Below are positions 2,912 to 24,757 of a DNA stretch of 24,757 nucleotides, piece after piece. Made by a program: the position numbers and the translations under genes. The notes under the pieces were generated by a model. That model did no database searches and was not told where the DNA came from. It saw only the letters and a program-made list of their open reading frames with translations. Where the stretch lies: positions 1 through 24,757 of the IMG/VR virus record IMGVR_UViG_2648501797_000006; one strand, given 5' to 3'. Position 1 is the stretch's first letter. Each line of letters opens with the position of its first letter. Source of the DNA: a virus (taxonomy: Duplodnaviria > Heunggongvirae > Uroviricota > Caudoviricetes).

Positions 2912-3026
2912 AGATATGCATCCTTGCTAAACTTAGATCGCCGGTCACCAACTAAGCATGCAGTATGCGTTATGTTTTTTATTGCTCCCAGGGTAATGTG
3001 TCCACTAACTAAACAAGGAGATAGTG

Positions 3027-3578
3027 ATGCTGCATACTATGAATTTCACGGTGCCCGTAAATCAGTCCACCGTTAACGCTTTAATTAGCAATTGCCTTGG
3101 AGCTATCAATCAGGGGGCGACTGAGTTAAACATTTACATTTCCAGTCCGGGCGGTGACCTCGTTGCAGGTTTTACTGCTTATCACTTTCTAAAGGCCCTA
3201 CCAATCCCAGTAAAGACCCATAACCTTAGCAATGTTGAATCAGTCGCTAATATCATTTTTCTTGCAGGGTCTGAACGTAAGGCGAATCCTGGGAGTCGGT
3301 TCTTACTGCATCCTTTTCACTGGGGCTTGATGGGCCCAAGCGTGGATCACTCACGCGTCAGTGAGTGGAGCGCGTGTCTCAATAATGACCTGGAGCGTTT
3401 TGTCGATATTTTGGAGAGTCAGATTGAGCTCAGTAAGAGCCGCAATGAGTGGAAGGAGGTTATCTCCGCCGCCACCATAGCCAATGCCTCTACAGCTCTG
3501 GATTGGGGGATGGTTCACGAGGTTGCCGCCGCCACTTACCCGCAGGCACCCGGCACATACTGGTGGATTAACTGTTAA
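3027..3578 (+). CDS. ClpP-fold (peptidase S14-like) serine peptidase-like protein, 183 aa
   Basis: AAGGAG at 3015..3020, 6 nt before ATG 3027. ...ELNIYISSPGGDLVAGFTAYHFL...SNVESVANIIFLAGSERKANPGSRFLLHPFHWG parallels ClpP ...YINSPGGVITAGMSIYDTM...GQAASMGAFLL...RVMIHQPLGG, with Ser and His at the corresponding positions. Assignment from recalled motifs only. Confidence 0.55.
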   Translation: MLHTMNFTVPVNQSTVNALISNCLGAINQGATELNIYISSPGGDLVAGFTAYHFLKALPIPVKTHNLSNVESVANIIFLAGSERKANPGSRFLLHPFHWGLMGPSVDHSRVSEWSACLNNDLERFVDILESQIELSKSRNEWKEVISAATIANASTALDWGMVHEVAAATYPQAPGTYWWINC

Positions 3579-12021: not shown

Positions 12022-12414
12022 TCAATCTTTAATTTCGGGGTCCATCTCTAGACTAATTTCCAGCATCGATAGGCAGCCATCAATAAACCCCTCAGCCATC
12101 TGTATCTCAATGCGTATTAGTTTCTCATCCTTTTTACGAGCCTTGGCGAGCTTTCTTTTAGAGATACCGTATAGGTAATGGGCAACAAGAAGCGAATGTT
12201 CGTCCGGCCTTTTTTGCCTTAGACGAGCAAGACAACCTTCAATAATTAATGCATCACTATCTGAACATGCCTGACGTGTTTTGCTTGTATAGGGAAGAAG
12301 CCCTTTAAACCCAGCAGCTATAGGAGAATAGTCTACTCCTGAACTATCACTCGCCGCCCATGCTCCCCAACGATCCAGAACCATTTGAATATCACGCATC
12401 AACTTTCTCCACAA
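12022..12414 (-). CDS. Late-gene antiterminator Q (phage 82/21-type Q family)
   Basis: MRDIQMVLDRWGAWAA...IAAGFKGLL... matches the Q antiterminator family as recalled; true start may be the MRDIQ methionine 5 codons in. Confidence 0.8.
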   Translation of the reverse strand: MWRKLMRDIQMVLDRWGAWAASDSSGVDYSPIAAGFKGLLPYTSKTRQACSDSDALIIEGCLARLRQKRPDEHSLLVAHYLYGISKRKLAKARKKDEKLIRIEIQMAEGFIDGCLSMLEISLEMDPEIKD

Positions 12415-16388: not shown

Positions 16389-16736
16389 GACCGACCTCTA
16401 TTTCCCTGAATTTACGACGAAACTGTTCGAGCGGGCTGAAGCACTCATGCTCATAGCCTTCACGGAGGTAGATAACCCGTTGTGTTTCCGGCTCCCAACG
16501 AATGACTCTGACGGGCACTCCGTAGTGATCTTTGAACCAGCGGTTAACTTGTCGCAAAGGACTGTCTCCTTCTGCCGGTTGAAATCCCCCACAGCCCACT
16601 CAGCAAAGCTGTGGGTTACAATTTCCCTGTCACCTGGTACATTTACTGCATAGCAATACTCCACCTTCGCTTTTCCACCCGGTACAGGAAGCGCAATCAG
16701 TTGCGAGCGACGGTAGTGTGTTGTTAAACTGTTCAT
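16378..16736 (-). CDS. Hypothetical small protein, possibly split by a +1 frameshift at a G5/C5 tract
   Basis: ORF 16398..16736 has a protein-like N-terminus then a Ser-rich tail; ORF 16378..16599 (+1 frame, GTG start) has a protein-like C-terminus ([37 protein letters not shown]...). Frames cross at ccccc, 16586..16590. Confidence 0.35.
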
Positions 16737-17347
16737 GCGTTAGTTTCTCCACAACCAGAAGCAATCGACGCCACGACGCCCGGAGCTGCACACTCGCGGG
16801 CGTCATTACTTTCTGAAACGCAAAAAATTTTGTAGACAAGTGCTGCATGCTCCTGCAGCTTCGAAATTGAGAGGTACAGCTCGTCGTTAATTGCTGTCTT
16901 CTCATGCGGTTCCACTACACCGTCTTCGATTGCCGAACGAATCTGTCTGGAATAACTGCCAATCTGTTCAATGACTTCCAGCAGGCGCTGGTTAATATCG
17001 GCGTTGTCCACATCCTCGACGTCAGGAAGAGACACAAAGACGCCATTTGCAGACTGCGCCACAGCGTCAGCAATGAAGTGAGTTCCACCAGCACGTTGCA
17101 AAATCATTGCCCATCCCAGCGGGAAAATCTGATCGCCATCGGCACGAAGGCGGTTAAATAATGCGTTTTCTGTTACATCCAGCCAGTCAGCTGCTTCAGC
17201 GTAACCACCCGGCAACGCTGCGATAGTTTTTCTGACAGCTTTCACGTACCACTCAGGCTGTTTTTCTACTTTCCAGTGATGCTTACCCACGGTTAGCCTC
17301 ATCGTTCTGTGGTTTCTGTTAATCGATTTATCCATTAGATTTTTCAT
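16733..17347 (-). CDS. CII-like regulatory protein (YdaT/CP76-like, 204 aa)
   Basis: Sits directly downstream of cro; start MKNLMDKS at complement 17345..17347 overlaps the cro 3' end. Family assignment from memory, not verified. Confidence 0.45.
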
Positions 17348-17528
17348 AAAGCTCAGGTTTAAATGGCAACCGTCCGCAAGTTCTATATGCAGCTTCTGCT
17401 GCACGTCCTTTTGGAATTAACTGGCCCGGACGGTTTCGCCACTGATAAACGGCTTCAGTTGTTATGCCGAAAAAAGCAGCAACTTTCTCAATACTGCCGA
17501 AGTAGCTTTCGATATCGTCAGTTGTCAT
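17328..17528 (-). CDS. Cro-like HTH regulator (YdaS/DicC-like, 66 aa)
   Basis: Small HTH protein (...VAAFFGITTEAVYQWRNR...) divergent from the cI-like gene; GGAGGG 5 nt before the ATG. Confidence 0.65.
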   Translation of the reverse strand: MTTDDIESYFGSIEKVAAFFGITTEAVYQWRNRPGQLIPKGRAAEAAYRTCGRLPFKPELYEKSNG

Positions 17529-17625: not shown

Positions 17626-18252
17626 ATGGAAACGGTTGGTCAGCGTATAAAAGCTCTGAGAAGAGTTACCGGAACGTCCCAGAAAGAATTGGGTAAATTT
17701 TGTGGAGTAAGCGACGTTGCTGTGGGGTACTGGGAGAAAGACATCAATACCCCTGGTGGGGAGGCACTTTCGAAATTAGCGAAGTTCTTCAATACGTCAA
17801 TAGATTACATTCTTTATGGTGCTGAGTTTGAAGGCAAACTCGTCACAAACATGCGCAGAGTTCCTGTAATATCGTGGGTTCAGGCTGGGCAGTTTACTGA
17901 GTGCAGGGCAGCAGAAGTGTTTAGTGAAGTGGACAAGTGGGTAGATACATCATTAAAGATTGGTGATAACTCATTTGCATTAGAGGTTAAAGGTGACTCC
18001 ATGACTAACCCTAATGGCCTCCCAACAATACCAGAAGGCGCAACAGTGATTGTAGATCCAGATGCAGAACCTCGTCATGGAAAAATAGTCATCGCTCGAC
18101 TTGATGGAACAAACGAAGCTACAGTAAAAAAATTAGTCATCGATGGCCCTCAAAAGTTTTTAGTGCCATTAAATCCTCGGTATCCCAACATCCCTATCAA
18201 TGGTAATTGCCTTATCATTGGTGTAGTCAAAGGAGTTCAATACGAACTCTAA
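17626..18252 (+). CDS. cI-like prophage repressor (HTH-XRE plus S24 LexA-like peptidase domain)
   Basis: N-terminal HTH (QKELGKFCGVSDVAVGYWE) and C-terminal autocleavage domain with GDSM serine and a downstream lysine (VKKLVIDG). Confidence 0.85.
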   Translation: METVGQRIKALRRVTGTSQKELGKFCGVSDVAVGYWEKDINTPGGEALSKLAKFFNTSIDYILYGAEFEGKLVTNMRRVPVISWVQAGQFTECRAAEVFSEVDKWVDTSLKIGDNSFALEVKGDSMTNPNGLPTIPEGATVIVDPDAEPRHGKIVIARLDGTNEATVKKLVIDGPQKFLVPLNPRYPNIPINGNCLIIGVVKGVQYEL

Positions 18253-18420
18253 GACCTCTCTTCTCTAACTAAGGCACCGAACTAAGAAAAGTTTGGTGTT
18301 TTCTCTTGCCATAATAACTAAGTTAAGTTAGATTTTATATCAAAGATAACGAACAGGCAGGACGCCCACGAAGTAGCCGCCTGGGGCATATGAAGTCCAG
18401 GATGATTCGTTGAGTCATGT
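18253..18420. promoter_or_regulatory. Candidate second operator cluster (OL-like) downstream of cI
   Basis: Three more AACTAAG copies at 18267..18273, 18280..18286 and 18316..18322 (the last followed by ttaagttag). Confidence 0.35.
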
Positions 18421-18458: not shown

Positions 18459-18734
18459 ATGAAAGTCCAGATTTTAAACAATAACTGTGAAGTCGTTTGG
18501 TCATACGACATAGCCGCCCCTGTAGATCAGAGCGGCGATAGCTGGACCAATGGGAAACATCAGATTATGGCTGGAGTTGTGTTCTCTTTACGCCGTGCTT
18601 TGGAACAGGCTGAAGTATTTCCATCAGACCCTGAATGGAAATGGCCTTTTTCTATTTGTCCAAATTCGGAGAGCACATTTCAGAAAATTGGTCAGAAAGT
18701 CGCACTCGAAGAGCATCAGCCAACTGTTTCCTGA
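18459..18734 (+). CDS. Hypothetical small protein downstream of cI (rex/sieB-equivalent position)
   Basis: ATG at 18459 (MKVQILNNNCEVVW...) with a weak AGG upstream; its 3' end overlaps a convergent ORF and reads less protein-like there. Confidence 0.3.
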   Translation: MKVQILNNNCEVVWSYDIAAPVDQSGDSWTNGKHQIMAGVVFSLRRALEQAEVFPSDPEWKWPFSICPNSESTFQKIGQKVALEEHQPTVS

Positions 18735-18897
18735 TTTTTTCAGGTAACTCGTCGGCATCGCAGAAACAACAACGCTCGATCATGTTGAAAGCCGATTCGT
18801 AGAACTGTTTCTGCTGAGTGTCGCTGAGACAGGAAAAGAGCGACGTTACGATGATTTTATTAATTGCATTATCAAGTTCTTTTTCATCAAAAGTCAT
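18652..18897 (-). CDS. Hypothetical small protein (81 aa), convergent with and overlapping the previous ORF
   Basis: AAGGAAAA 7 nt before ATG (complement 18895..18897); MTFDEKELDNAINKII...; no family recognised. Confidence 0.4.
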   Translation of the reverse strand: MTFDEKELDNAINKIIVTSLFSCLSDTQQKQFYESAFNMIERCCFCDADELPEKIRKQLADALRVRLSDQFSEMCSPNLDK

Positions 18898-19129
18898 TTG
18901 ATTTTCCTTTTATGTATACGGGCTTAAAAGGATACCACCGAGCCTGAAGTGGTGAAAAGACAGGCACATAACAGCTAAGTATTTTCAACCAGAGAGAATC
19001 CTTAGCGTTGTGGTGAATGCGGCTCAGCGCACGCGGGTTAAGGTTGAGGCTGACAGTCGACCTTCTGTAGATACCCACCCGCCTGGTGTGCAACCTTCGC
19101 CAGGCACCGGGAGGCACCCGGCACCACAA

Positions 19130-19197
19130 CTTTATGCTGTGTGTAGTCCTGGCGGTACCAGTTTGTACCCTTGCTTCCGGCTGGTACCGCTCTTTTT
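19130..19197 (+). ncRNA. Candidate DicF-like small RNA with an intrinsic terminator
   Basis: In a ~440-bp gap with no convincing ORF: perfect 10-bp stem gcggtaccag (19152..19161) / ctggtaccgc (19181..19190), 19-nt loop, then tcttttt. The segment ggcggtaccagtttgtaccc resembles the DicF core as recalled (ggcggtatcagttttactcc). 5' boundary not determinable. Confidence 0.35.
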
Positions 19198-19334
19198 ACA
19201 AAACAGAGAAGAGCATCACCGGACGACGGGCTCATAACCCAATCCATCCGGGCGGCTGCCACCGCAGGTGTTCTTCTCTGTTTTGTGGAGAAACTAATCG
19301 GCCTTGCAGGGTCGATATGATGAGGAGCAGCAAA

Positions 19335-19697
19335 ATGGCTAGCGAACGCAGTACTGATGTGCAGGCATTTATCGGGGAGCTGGACGGCGGCGTATTTGAA
19401 ACCAAAATCGGCGCAGTTCTCAGTGAAGTCGCTTCCGGTGTGATGAACACGAAAACCAAAGGTAAGGTCTCACTCAACCTGGAAATCGAACCATTTGATG
19501 AGAACCGTGTGAAAATCAAACACAAACTCTCATATGTTCGCCCGACTAACCGCGGGAAAATTTCCGAAGAAGACACCACCGAAACGCCGATGTATGTCAA
19601 TCGCGGTGGTCGCCTGACTATTCTGCAGGAAGACCAGGGACAATTACTGACTCTTGCCGGTGAACCTGACGGAAAACTCCGCGCAGCAGGTCATTAA
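19335..19697 (+). CDS. yfdP: YfdP-like protein (120 aa)
   Basis: GAGGAG 7 nt before ATG 19335; the track's upstream extension is GC-rich structured sequence. Assigned by length and position ahead of yfdQ/yfdR-like genes. Confidence 0.5.
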   Translation: MASERSTDVQAFIGELDGGVFETKIGAVLSEVASGVMNTKTKGKVSLNLEIEPFDENRVKIKHKLSYVRPTNRGKISEEDTTETPMYVNRGGRLTILQEDQGQLLTLAGEPDGKLRAAGH

Positions 19698-20587: not shown

Positions 20588-20598
20588 TTTCATTACTG

Positions 20599-20624
20599 CA
20601 AATGCCCCTGCGGGGGCATTTATG
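20599..20624 (+). terminator. Candidate hairpin terminator after the yfdQ-like gene
   Basis: ATGCCCC-tgcg-GGGGCAT perfect 7-bp stem (20602..20619) followed by ttat; short T-run so strength uncertain. Confidence 0.4.
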
Positions 20625-20714
20625 GAAACGTAATTTACTCAATAATCGCCGGATGGTGAGGGATTCTTTTTACCAGAATTCAGCGCGGTGCAGCGCATAT
20701 ACGTGGAGAACAAA

Positions 20715-21909: not shown

Positions 21910-22259
21910 TGGAGCCATACAGCCTCACACTCGATGAGGCCTGTCATTTTCTCAAGATATCCAGACCGACTGCCATTAACTGGATACGCACAGGGCGTCT
22001 TCAGGCAACACGCAAAGATCCCACTAAGAATAAATCTCCTTACCTCACAACACGACAAGCCTGCATTGCGGCTCTTCAGTCTCCGCTGCATACTGTCCAG
22101 GTGAGCGCGGGTGATGGCATAACAGAGGAAAGAAAATGTCACTCTTCCGCAGAGGTGAAATATGGTACGCCAGTTTCACATTGCCGAACGGTAAAAGATT
22201 TAAACAGTCTCTTGGAACAAAGGACAAAAGGCAGGCGACAGAACTCCATGACAAGCTAA
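21909..22259 (+). CDS. Excisionase/AlpA-like DNA-binding protein (xis candidate)
   Basis: AAGAGGTGA before ATG 21909, which overlaps the upstream stop as TAATG. N-terminus [31 protein letters not shown] is an AlpA/Xis-type HTH. The 3' 124 nt overlap int in another frame, so the functional protein may be shorter. Confidence 0.5.
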
Positions 22260-23299
22260 AGGCTGAAGCATGGCGGGTCAGCAAACTTGGTGAAATACCT
22301 GATATAACGTTCGAGGAAGCATGTGTCAGGTGGCTTGAAGAGAAAGCACATAAAAAATCACTGGACGATGACAAAAGCCGGATCGGATTCTGGCTTCAAC
22401 ATTTCGCAGGAATGCAACTAAGAGACATTACTGAATCAAAAATTTATTCAGCAATGCAGAAAATGACGAACCGGCGTCATGAGGAAAACTGGAGACTCAG
22501 GGCAGAAGCATGCAGAAAAAAAGGGAAACCTGTTCCAGAATACACGCCAAAACCAGCGTCCGTTGCAACGAAGGCTACGCATCTTTCATTTATAAAGGCC
22601 CTACTAAGAGCCGCAGAGCGTGAATGGAAAATGCTGGATAAGGCACCAATTATTAAAGTGCCTCAACCAAAGAATAAACGGATCCGCTGGCTGGAGCCCC
22701 ATGAAGCACAAAGGCTGATTGATGAATGTCCGGAGCCATTAAAGTCTGTTGTTGAATTTGCACTGGCAACAGGCTTAAGACGCTCGAACATCATCAACCT
22801 TGAATGGCAACAAATAGACATGCAGCGCCGGGTGGCATGGATAAACCCGGAAGAGAGTAAATCAAACCGCGCAATTGGCGTTGCGCTGAATGATACTGCA
22901 TGTCGCGTTTTGAAAAAACAAATCGGGAATCATCACCGTTGGGTATTTGTGTACAAGGAAAGCTGTACCAAACCAGACGGAACGAAAGCGCCAACAGTAA
23001 GGAAGATGCGGTATGACGCAAACACAGCCTGGAAAGCGGCGCTGAGACGGGCTGGTATTGATGATTTCAGATTTCACGACTTGAGACACACCTGGGCAAG
23101 TTGGCTGGTTCAAGCCGGAGTCCCGTTGTCAGTGTTACAGGAAATGGGAGGCTGGGAGTCTATCGAAATGGTTCGTCGATATGCTCACCTTGCACCTAAT
23201 CACCTTACCGAACACGCACGGCAAATAGACTCGATCCTGAACCCATCGGTCCCAAATTTGTCCCAATCAAAAAATAAGGAAGGTACTAATGATGTGTAA
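22136..23299 (+). CDS. int: Tyrosine recombinase (phage integrase, 387 aa)
   Basis: AGGAAAG before ATG 22136; C-terminal catalytic region with ...[42 protein letters not shown] (R, H-x-x-R, Y). Ends 15 bp from the tRNA 3' end. Confidence 0.9.
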
Positions 23300-23313: not shown

Positions 23314-23389
23314 TGGTGCCGATAATAGGAGTCGAACCTACGACCTTCGCATTACGAATGCGCTGCTCTACCAACTGAGCTATATCGGC
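23314..23389 (-). tRNA. thrW: tRNA-Thr (anticodon CGU), 76 nt with encoded CCA
   Basis: Reverse complement reads GCCGATATAGCTCAGTTGGTAGAGCAGCGCATTCGTAATGCGAAGGTCGTAGGTTCGACTCCTATTATCGGCACCA: D-loop AGCTCAGTTGGTAGAGC, anticodon loop TTCGTAA, T-arm GGTTCGACTCC. Confidence 0.9.
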
Positions 23390-23503: not shown

Positions 23504-24757
23504 TTACGCACGAATGGTGTAATCACCAATGCCGATCCACTTGTAAGTGGTCAGTGCTTCCAGCCCCATTGGGCCACGCGCGTGGAGTTTTTGTGTGCTT
23601 ACCGCCACTTCCGCACCCAGACCAAACTGGCCGCCGTCGGTAAAACGCGTAGAGGCGTTAACGTAAACAGCGGACGAATCCACTTCGTTAACAAAACGCT
23701 GGGCGTTGCGCATATCGCGGGTCAGGATCGCATCGGAGTGTTGTGTGCCGTGTTCACGAATATGGGCGATGGCATCGTCAAGATCGCTGACGATTTTGAC
23801 GTTCAAATCTAATGACAGAAACTCATCGTCATACTCTTCGGCTTTAACAGCAACCACCTTCGCAGGGCCTGCCTGCAACTGCGCCAGTGCAGCTGCATCT
23901 GCGTGTAATGTCACGCCGCTTTCCGCCATTTGTTTGCTTAATGCGGGCAGGAAGCTATCGGCGATGTTTTTATTCACCAGCAACGTTTCAACCGTATTAC
24001 ATGTGCTCGGACGCTGAGTTTTCGCGTTGACGATCACTTTTAATGCTTCAGCGATCTCTACACTTTCATCAACGTAAATATGGCATACGCCTATACCACC
24101 TGTGATCACCGGGATTGTCGACTGTTCACGGCACAGTTTATGCAAACCAGCGCCACCACGCGGGATCAGCATGTCGATGTATTTATCCATACGCAGCATT
24201 TCACTGACCAGCGCACGGTCAGGATTATCAATCGCCTGCACGGCACCCGCCGGTAAGCCGCAGGATTTCAGGGCGTCCTGAATCACCGCCACCGTTGCAG
24301 CGTTAGTGCGACACGTTTCTTTGCCACCGCGCAGGATCACCGCATTACCGGTTTTCAGGCACAGCGAAGCGACATCAACCGTCACGTTCGGGCGCGCTTC
24401 ATAAATCACGCCAATAACCCCCAGCGGTACGCGACGACGCTCAAGACGCAGGCCGCTGTCCAGTACGCCGCCATCGATTACCTGCCCCACCGGATCGGCG
24501 AGGTTACACACCTGGCGCACATCGTCGGCAATGCCTTTCAGCCGTGCGGGCGTCAGTGCCAGACGGTCAAGCATCGCTTCGCTAAGGCCGTTGGCACGCG
24601 CGTCAGCAACATCCTGCGCGTTAGCGTTGAGGATGATTTCGCTTTGTGCTTCCAGTTCATCGGCTATTTTTTCCAGTACGCGATTTTTTTCGCGGCTGGA
24701 GAGTTGCGCTAATTTATACGAGGCTTGCTTCGCGGCAATGCCCATTTGTTCCAGCAT
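23504..24757 (-). CDS. proA: Gamma-glutamyl phosphate reductase ProA (417 aa, start codon at the window edge)
   Basis: [38 protein letters not shown]... is E. coli ProA as recalled; stop at 23504..23506. Confidence 0.95.

Follow-up and report, generated by a model that had tools for sequence, protein, structure and literature searches.

In an SfV-like prophage a DicF-like hairpin of the early leftward operon closes an unannotated RNA of the STnc100/PasD family

Introduction

What is the U-tailed hairpin at positions 19151-19197 of a 24,757-nucleotide (nt) stretch of viral DNA (IMG/VR record IMGVR_UViG_2648501797_000006; the whole of this stretch is referred to as the window), and does it, as a reading made from the sequence alone had proposed, belong to the DicF family of small RNAs (sRNAs) that block translation of ftsZ? 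The hairpin is carried by an SfV-like prophage integrated at a tRNA-Thr(CGU) gene, the window being 98.9% identical to Shigella phage SfV over 18898-19335. The hairpin resembles DicF but is probably not a cell-division inhibitor; it closes a structured RNA that belongs to the STnc100/PasD family of prophage sRNAs, as a variant that lies in an early operon and has gone unannotated. The sequence-only reading was right about the neighbourhood and the local similarity to DicF that it saw is real, but the family and the target were wrong.

The hairpin

The inverted repeat is as had been described, a perfect stem of 10 base pairs (bp) with a 19-nt loop and a T-run: its arms, GCGGTACCAG and CTGGTACCGC, lie 19 nt apart at 19152-19161 and 19181-19190, and G-U pairs lengthen the stem to 13 bp (19151-19163 with 19179-19191), leaving a loop of 15 nt. 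The stem is followed by CTTTTTAC, with the T-run at 19193-19197 and an RNA tail of CUUUUU; as in an intrinsic terminator, a G+C-rich stem passes directly into a U-run on the transcribed strand. As the T-run lies 3' of the stem on the + strand only, this is a terminator-type hairpin for leftward transcription. A 71-nt stretch folds with -24 kcal/mol (z = -3.76, none of 200 shuffles being as stable), and the 56-nt hairpin alone has a z of -3.6.

The spacer that holds the hairpin had been described as a GC-rich stretch of ~440 bp. Its length stands, at 437 bp from the end of an 81-amino-acid (aa) open reading frame (ORF) at 18897 to the start of a yfdP-like gene at 19335, but with 52.4% GC against 49.2% for the window (56.8% over 19004-19320) it is only mildly GC-rich.

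A folded body of the STnc100/PasD type

Upstream of the hairpin there is a folded body, and in a permissive Rfam scan the two together (18977-19199) match the full STnc100 model (RF02076, model positions 1-206) with 44.8 bits and E 1.6e-8, the hairpin being aligned to the model's own 3' terminator helix. The default Rfam scan is silent here because this score is under the curated cut-off. As an independent check on membership IMG/VR was scanned for the invariant motif CACCNGGAGGCACCNGGCAC, which gave at least 120 loci; the listed loci were reduced to 45 diverse representatives, and the 44 of them that are not of SfV type were used to build a covariance model, R1. Although trained without SfV-type sequences, R1 gives 76.8 bits (E ~1e-20) to window 19004-19132, and it finds no second convincing copy of the body in the window. 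The parts of the RNA are as follows.

19004-19132, + strand: folded STnc100/PasD-type body (Rfam STnc100, model R1, covariation)
19007-19015 with 19122-19130, + strand: P1, 9 bp in the window
19019-19034, + strand: P2
19035-19037 with 19078-19080, + strand: P3, a short closing helix
19040-19097, + strand: pseudoknot of AAGGUUG (19040-19046) with the P4 loop CAACCUU (19091-19097), from family-wide complementarity
19082-19088 with 19098-19104, + strand: P4
19107-19121, + strand: P5 (CCGGGAGGCACCCGG)
19131-19150, + strand: single-stranded linker UUUAUGCUGUGUGUAGUCCU between body and terminator, unpaired in the fold, a candidate seed or Hfq site
19151-19197, + strand: intrinsic terminator, 13-bp stem, 15-nt loop and CUUUUU (fold and repeat search)

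The body folds, as in the STnc100/PasD family of prophage sRNAs, into five helices with a pseudoknot. In a MAFFT alignment of the family 95.1% of the cells in the consensus helices are standard pairs, a figure that falls to 34-49% once the partners are slid, and there are 137 double-changed cells in the helices against 45 in shuffles; the closing helix P1, the hairpins P2, P4 and P5 and the GGUGAAU and CACCGGGAGGCACCCGGCACC motifs are all found in the window. In most of the 45 diverse members the bases that follow P2 can pair with the P4 loop, and this is achieved through many unrelated sequences, for example CUGGUG/CACCGG, CCAGUC/GACUGG, AGACUGACAAA/UUUGUCAGUCU and GCCAGGUCG/UGACCUGGC. The complementary run has a mean length of 6.2 nt, against 4.2 for mismatched partners, and it reaches at least 6 nt in 64% of sequences, against 15% with mismatched partners. 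This covarying pseudoknot is not in the Rfam consensus structure of STnc100.

The copy in the window shares with STnc100 that it is prophage-borne, that it matches the model over its full length, closing helix, P2 and P4 included, that it has the invariant CACCGGGAGGCACCCGGCACC hairpin and that a terminator follows after a short linker. It differs in its P2, which is compensated to GCGGC...GCACGC instead of CCCCC...GGGG, in a score 2 bits under the cut-off, and in its location, a repressor-controlled leftward early operon where it has no evident promoter of its own and is followed by a tRNA-like junction. The STnc100 copy of Stx2 phage lies just downstream of stx2 (PMC12370729), and among the matches listed several IMG/VR copies of STnc100 type are near late-region genes such as holin-like ORFs, a large esterase-like ORF and a Q-like ORF. 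PasD1 and PasD2 of enteropathogenic Escherichia coli (EPEC) are likewise prophage-encoded and Hfq-dependent, and structure and ancestry are reported to be shared with STnc100, however they lie near Q and LpxR genes in late regions; they are likened to the element here by published description. A 2026 preprint concludes that PasD and STnc100 descend from one ancestor and states that what they do has yet to be elucidated (bioRxiv 10.64898/2026.05.13.724894).

No neighbouring protein is common to the family, as among the matches listed there are 43 clusters of ORFs on the downstream side and 61 on the upstream side. Body and terminator also occur as tandem arrays, with four copies in one contig (L105), three in each of two others (L017, L030) and two in each of three more (L033, L051, L126), the copies in the two-copy arrays being ~253-267 nt apart.

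Conservation of the terminator

By the criteria of the search script, a terminator-like hairpin occurs 0-91 nt after the body in 72 of 117 distinct family occurrences among the matches listed, and the stems of these 72 hairpins are unrelated in sequence; in the window the terminator begins 21 nt after the end of P1 at 19130. In the homologous leaders, which come from E. coli, Salmonella and Klebsiella phages, the two arms of the stem vary in concert whilst the U-run and the CUUUUUAC that follows it stay, and 33 distinct tail-proximal sequences keep hairpin and U-run with stems that differ. Compensated stem pairs, all then followed by a U-run, include GGCGGUACCAG/CUGGUACCGC, GUCGGCGUC/GACGCCGAC, GGCGGUUAUCCA/UGGAUAACCGCC and GGCGGCAUC/GAUGCCGC, among others. 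The hairpin is a terminator that closes a structured RNA, and the presence of a terminator at this position is conserved. The linker at 19131-19150 is largely kept in the ST64B and Klebsiella relatives despite the changed terminator stem, which makes it the best candidate for a seed.

A mosaic junction lies at the start of the hairpin, at window ~19150. Phages mEp460, cdtI and the Stx2a/Stx2c phages share 19150-19335 at ~97% identity and carry upstream of it a much diverged body, to which model R1 gives 25.7 and 16.7 bits; the stretch concerned is 2352-2491 in mEp460 (L002) and in Stx2a_1447 (L004).

An alternative, riboswitch-like pairing of the body with the terminator was also considered. 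In the window the 3' arm of P4, CGCCAGG, could pair with CCUGGCG at the base of the terminator, and in canonical members P2 resembles the terminator; on inspection of the sequences no such relation holds across subfamilies and the idea was rejected.

Relationship to DicF

The likeness of the 5' arm to DicF, from which the earlier proposal started, is there: TGGCGGTACCAGTTT agrees with TGGCGGTATCAGTTT of K-12 DicF at 14 of 15 positions, and with a natural variant of DicF in L103 at all 15. Local alignment with DicF scores 28, where the maximum among 500 shuffles of the intergenic region is 27, and the likeness in sequence is therefore borderline. There are further features in common with DicF (RF00039) of the Qin prophage, as both are terminator-type hairpins with a GGCGG...CCGC(C) base and a tail of five U, both lie inside a leftward early operon of a lambdoid prophage under a CI-like repressor, and both adjoin a homologous STnc100-type body.

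It would nevertheless seem very improbable that the hairpin is an sRNA of the DicF family that blocks ftsZ translation. Lack of a covariance-model match to dicF had been named beforehand as one outcome that should tell against the proposal, and no qualifying match for DicF was obtained: the Rfam model gives the hairpin 15.7 bits where the cut-off requires 48, and E is 1 in a search of 551 nt, when the same tool gives 76.7 bits to true K-12 DicF. The conserved loop and 3' region of DicF, UUUUACUCCGU...CUGCUCUGCC, which pairs with the ribosome-binding site of ftsZ (PMC5069750), is absent, its ACUCCG loop being replaced by UUUGUACCCUUGCUUCCGG, and the single-stranded 5' seed of DicF, UUUCUGGUGAC, which pairs with xylR, is absent too, the window having UGCUGUGUGUAGUCC in that place. 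The predicted pairing with the ftsZ leader, another check that had been suggested, is unspecific; the cofold binding energy with the K-12 ftsZ leader is -6.1 kcal/mol and 77% of shuffled leaders do equally well or better (cofold binding energies were used instead of RNAduplex, which gave meaningless long-range structures on long sequences). Furthermore the stem sequence is not kept in ST64B or in the Klebsiella-phage relatives, which retain hairpin and U-run alone, and the order of the parts is reversed, the hairpin lying 3' of the body here and 5' of it in Qin. DicF identity was rejected on the model score, the missing seed and ftsZ loop and the lack of specific ftsZ pairing. Most leader-terminator stems share the base GGCGG...CCGCC, as does DicF, so that the likeness most likely stems from a type of leftward-operon terminator that they have in common and not from a shared regulatory sequence.

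In K-12 Qin (L006) the STnc100-type body at 2952-3084 lies between dicF (2883-2935) and dicB (3110-3298), and scores 34.4 bits (E 3.8e-4) with Rfam STnc100 and 87.5 bits with R1, of which it is a training member. The DicF hairpin precedes the body, there is no terminator 3' of it and the body ends ~25 nt before the start of dicB; no degenerate second body was found upstream of dicF in Qin. The 72-nt species of DicF is reported to have a 3' end made by RNase III (PMC5069750), and 72 nt counted from the dicF start (L006 2883) lead to ~2954 where the P1 helix of the body is 2952-2963, so that, judging from these coordinates and to within a few nt, the RNase III end may lie in the first bases of P1.

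A second terminator of the GGCGG type, CUGGCGG...CCGCCAG-CUUUUU, lies upstream of the body in ST64B (L003 2405-2448), which is the place of DicF in Qin, and ST64B thus has terminators on both sides of the body. These double terminators and the reversed order in Qin suggest that such leaders are built from shuffled modules. ST64B also holds, inside the sb41 region (L003 21-97, - strand), an RNA of the isrK family that is above the Rfam cut-off with 64.3 bits.

Expression and function

We lean towards reading the hairpin as a Rho-independent terminator on the pL strand that forms the 3' end of a ~130-220-nt RNA of STnc100/PasD type, probably an Hfq-associated sRNA. Members of the family are expressed elsewhere: for E. 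coli O157:H7 EDL933 11 STnc100 copies are listed, of which 10 have transcriptome reads numbering from several hundred to several thousand and one has been confirmed on a Northern blot (PMC5331693), and for PasD1/2 of EPEC, which are Hfq-dependent, there is validation from Northern blot and RIL-seq, the latter with many partners (PMC8550237). A literature text search for the conserved sequence strings found no paper beyond a PCR primer in an outer membrane vesicle paper.

A promoter of its own was not found for the RNA in 18898-19003, where scan and inspection gave none with at least 9/12 matches and the best candidates found by hand have 6-7/12, nor did a consensus scan find a promoter between the terminator and yfdP. 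As none was found between pL and the RNA it is probably made from pL transcripts, and as none was found after the terminator the downstream genes would need read-through. By analogy with DicF and with the relatives above, pL would fire on induction or infection and the transcript would terminate at the hairpin, the 5' end of the RNA would be set by processing, as DicF is made from the dicB operon, and the RNA may bind Hfq and base-pair with targets, the linker being the likeliest pairing region. The hairpin may also attenuate transcription into the yfdP-like, xis and int genes, and RNase III would probably cleave read-through transcripts within the long helices on either side of it.

This arrangement has parallels, as in lambda 6S RNA (pR'-tR'), StxS of Stx phages and lambda tL1 a terminator within a long phage operon gives rise to a discrete small RNA and blocks downstream transcription unless it is read through. 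Those leaders start at the promoter, whereas the RNA here lies ~650-850 nt downstream of the probable pL and after an ORF, and the left operon of this phage has no known antiterminator.

A number of observations weigh against reading the element as a terminated, trans-acting sRNA. The Rfam STnc100 score is just below the curated cut-off of 47 bits. The terminator has a loop of 15-19 nt and five U, where strong terminators typically have a loop of 3-8 nt and a U-rich tract of 7-9 nt (DicF likewise has a tail of five U, and an innermost hairpin loop of 9 nt), and a simple consensus terminator scan of the window left the hairpin unlisted. No sigma-70-like promoter was found by consensus scan between pL and the RNA. 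A trans-acting role is argued by analogy only, and no target was found in the window, the longest complementarity to the linker being 9 nt and within the range of shuffles. Finally, members of dicB type carry the body in a 5' untranslated region (UTR) with no terminator after it, and the body may therefore have a function in cis that an sRNA model leaves unexplained.

Alternative explanations

The last of these points leads to a cis-acting alternative, in which body, terminator and tRNA-like junction form a leader device that sets read-through from pL into yfdP, xis and int, either by RNA antitermination of the put type of HK022 or by acting as a sensor through which termination is modulated, the phage having no N-like protein. 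The first terminator of the left operon does come after the element, which itself follows pL, the early-left ORFs tested gave no N-like protein (the Q homologue at 12022-12414 being the sole antiterminator found), the genes beyond the terminator would need read-through, the fold is complex and pseudoknotted beyond the needs of a simple sRNA, and the 5' UTR elements of dicB type have no terminator at all. The put RNAs of HK022 are likewise found upstream of terminators in a lambdoid phage that lacks N; however they are two simple stem-loops, a different architecture, and neither Rfam STnc100 nor R1 has a match at E <=0.5 in HK022 24000-32000, where both put sites are to be expected, on which homology to put was rejected. 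The relatives accumulate as RNAs terminated efficiently right after the element (PMC5331693, PMC8550237), which argues that the body does not suppress its own terminator. A persistent antiterminator would have no need of tandem units of body and terminator, the body of Qin is preceded by the terminator (DicF), and the alternative pairing that a sensor might use is not conserved across subfamilies, as described above. A cis-acting leader device is on this evidence unlikely.

Much the same standing is given to the proposal that the folded elements serve mainly as RNase III or processing "punctuation" of the early-left transcript and have no function in trans, which is also unlikely. The RNase III-made end of the 72-nt DicF (PMC5069750), falling as it does at about L006 2954 in the first bases of P1, would fit such a role, as would the ~20 continuous bp that close the junction, the size of an RNase III substrate, and flanking genes that are unrelated from phage to phage are to be expected of an autonomous RNA module. 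But a plain RNase III site needs neither five helices nor a pseudoknot and invariant loops, P1 has only 9 bp in the window, and the relatives are Hfq-dependent with many RIL-seq partners.

Lastly, the region might be a decayed protein-coding gene across 19010-19320, as RefSeq/PGAP has it in E. coli MB98, where a "frameshifted hypothetical protein" pseudogene (L243 1851-2161) corresponds to that part of the window, and several phage records have features named "hypothetical protein" where the match falls. The spacer had been said to hold no convincing ORF, and whilst mechanical ORFs of 74-80 aa do cross the region, the relatives keep no reading frame: 23 of the 45 diverse family cores have stops in all three sense frames, body lengths among these 45 fall in all three classes modulo 3 and the substitutions are compensatory for base pairs. 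Protein coding was rejected on the stops, a decayed gene is extremely improbable, and the PGAP call is probably an annotation error that has spread from ORFs predicted across structured RNA. A small ORF that starts in the terminator loop and crosses into the junction (19171-19320) was rejected as well, as its start and Shine-Dalgarno sequence are not conserved and as a hand count on the alignment gives 3 synonymous and 9 non-synonymous differences between the window and ST64B.

A three-way junction with an initiator-tRNA-like arm

Beyond the terminator, and one base after its U-run, a second structured RNA begins.

19198-19286, + strand: three-way-junction RNA with a ~20-bp closing stem (fold -46.2 kcal/mol, z -7.2)

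One arm of the junction, CGGGCUCAUAACCC at 19227-19240, is identical to the anticodon stem-loop of the initiator tRNA of E. coli, down to its three G-C pairs and its CAU; it matches metZ at 14 of 14 positions, where no such match is expected by chance. The junction is conserved with compensatory changes in its relatives, which lie at 2505-2585 of L128, 2515-2620 of L129 and 2741-2835 of L003. The CGGGCUCAUAACCC motif is found in more than 100 IMG/VR contigs and in two settings. It occurs directly 3' of the leader terminator and upstream of yfdP-like genes, within a covarying long outer stem, and, in Klebsiella phages, directly 3' of tRNA-Asn and tRNA-Arg, downstream of Q, where a 7-bp outer stem is followed by ACCA or GCCA, a form that is tRNA-like and lacks a D-arm. 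ARAGORN calls only tRNA-Thr in the window and leaves the Klebsiella form uncalled too, and the Rfam tRNA model has no match at E <=10 in 18850-19400. The mimic of the initiator-tRNA anticodon arm is a separate lead that can be tested.

The early leftward operon and its prophage

That a structured non-coding RNA element lies in the early leftward operon, as had been suggested, is borne out by the gene strands and a probable OL/pL site. The + strand is the "leftward" early direction because the cI-like gene is on + and Cro on -, and because OL-type operators overlap the promoter-like site at 18306-18334; the genes from yfdP to int are also on +. The features of the operon and of the regions on either side are listed below.

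12022-12414, - strand: Q antiterminator homologue
16733-17404, - strand: CII-like gene
17328-17528, - strand: P22-type Cro (PHROG/Pfam matches)
17626-18252, + strand: LexA/CI-type repressor, cI-like (PHROG/Pfam matches)
18306-18334, + strand: probable pL promoter, TTGCCA, 17 nt, TAGATT (promoter scan, 9/12)
18315-18331, + strand: OL operator TAACTAAGTTAAGTTAG, overlapping the probable pL
18459-18734, + strand: 91-aa ORF (PHROG 3195; annotated by PGAP)
18652-18897, - strand: 81-aa antisense ORF (PHROG 3311)
19335-19697, + strand: yfdP-like gene, the first gene after the leader (PHROG/Pfam matches; SfV and PGAP annotation)
3' of the yfdP-like gene, + strand: yfdQ-, yfdR- and yfdS-like genes, then xis (PHROG/Pfam; SfV and PGAP annotation)
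22136-23299, + strand: int (PHROG/Pfam)
23314-23389, - strand: tRNA-Thr(CGU), adjoining int (ARAGORN)

The operator half-site repeat AACTAAG...TTAG has two copies between cI and cro (17538, 17587) and one at 18315-18331. Immediately upstream of the proposed pL and 3' of cI, at window 18262-18305, is another terminator-like hairpin, CACCGAACUAAGAAAAGUUUGGUG followed by UUUUCUC, which holds operator-like AACTAAG half-sites. Between pL and the RNA the two ORFs at 18459-18734 (+) and 18652-18897 (-) are convergent, with an overlap of 83 nt, and both match PHROG families of unknown function; PGAP annotates the + strand ORF only, and SfV annotation likewise has orf33 on the + strand, the better ribosome-binding site, AAGGAAAATCAAATG, belonging to the - strand ORF.

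A weak match to the body model (~17 bits) recurs in the yfdQ-yfdR spacer, at window 20589-20699 (+), at 3940-4050 of L002 and L004 and at 2859-2969 of L244, with the hairpin AAAUGCCCCUGCGGGGGCAUUU at its centre, and is probably just a terminator-like hairpin after yfdQ. The CPS-53 prophage of K-12 was tried as a model, and its yfdO-yfdP spacer has no leader.

The tRNA-Thr(CGU) gene beside the integrase, with a 417-aa ORF beyond it at 23504-24757 (-), fits a prophage end at thrW, the attachment site that phages of SfV type use. Of 5426 complete E. coli genomes, 2746 contain some stretch of 18960-19210 and 1825 contain at least 80% of it.

Implications

An unannotated element, which the Rfam cut-off misses and which PGAP mislabels as a broken gene, is now placed in a known sRNA family. 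As the family itself is already known, what is new are three leads, the pseudoknotted fold, the place beside dicF and the adjacent mimic of the initiator tRNA. A bolder proposal, and one that we regard as quite improbable, is that body, terminator and junction together are a protein-independent RNA control device of the early-left operon in N-less lambdoid phages. If this were true, the device could set read-through into xis and int, or couple read-through to the state of translation initiation or, alternatively, to anticodon nucleases that target the initiator tRNA, and the "sRNAs" STnc100/PasD and DicF would be by-products or offshoots of such devices.

The arrangements described here tie DicF, STnc100 and PasD together as members of a single set of leader modules that prophages have shuffled, and the pseudoknotted fold of the body, together with its location between dicF and dicB, suggests that it does more than carry a seed sequence.

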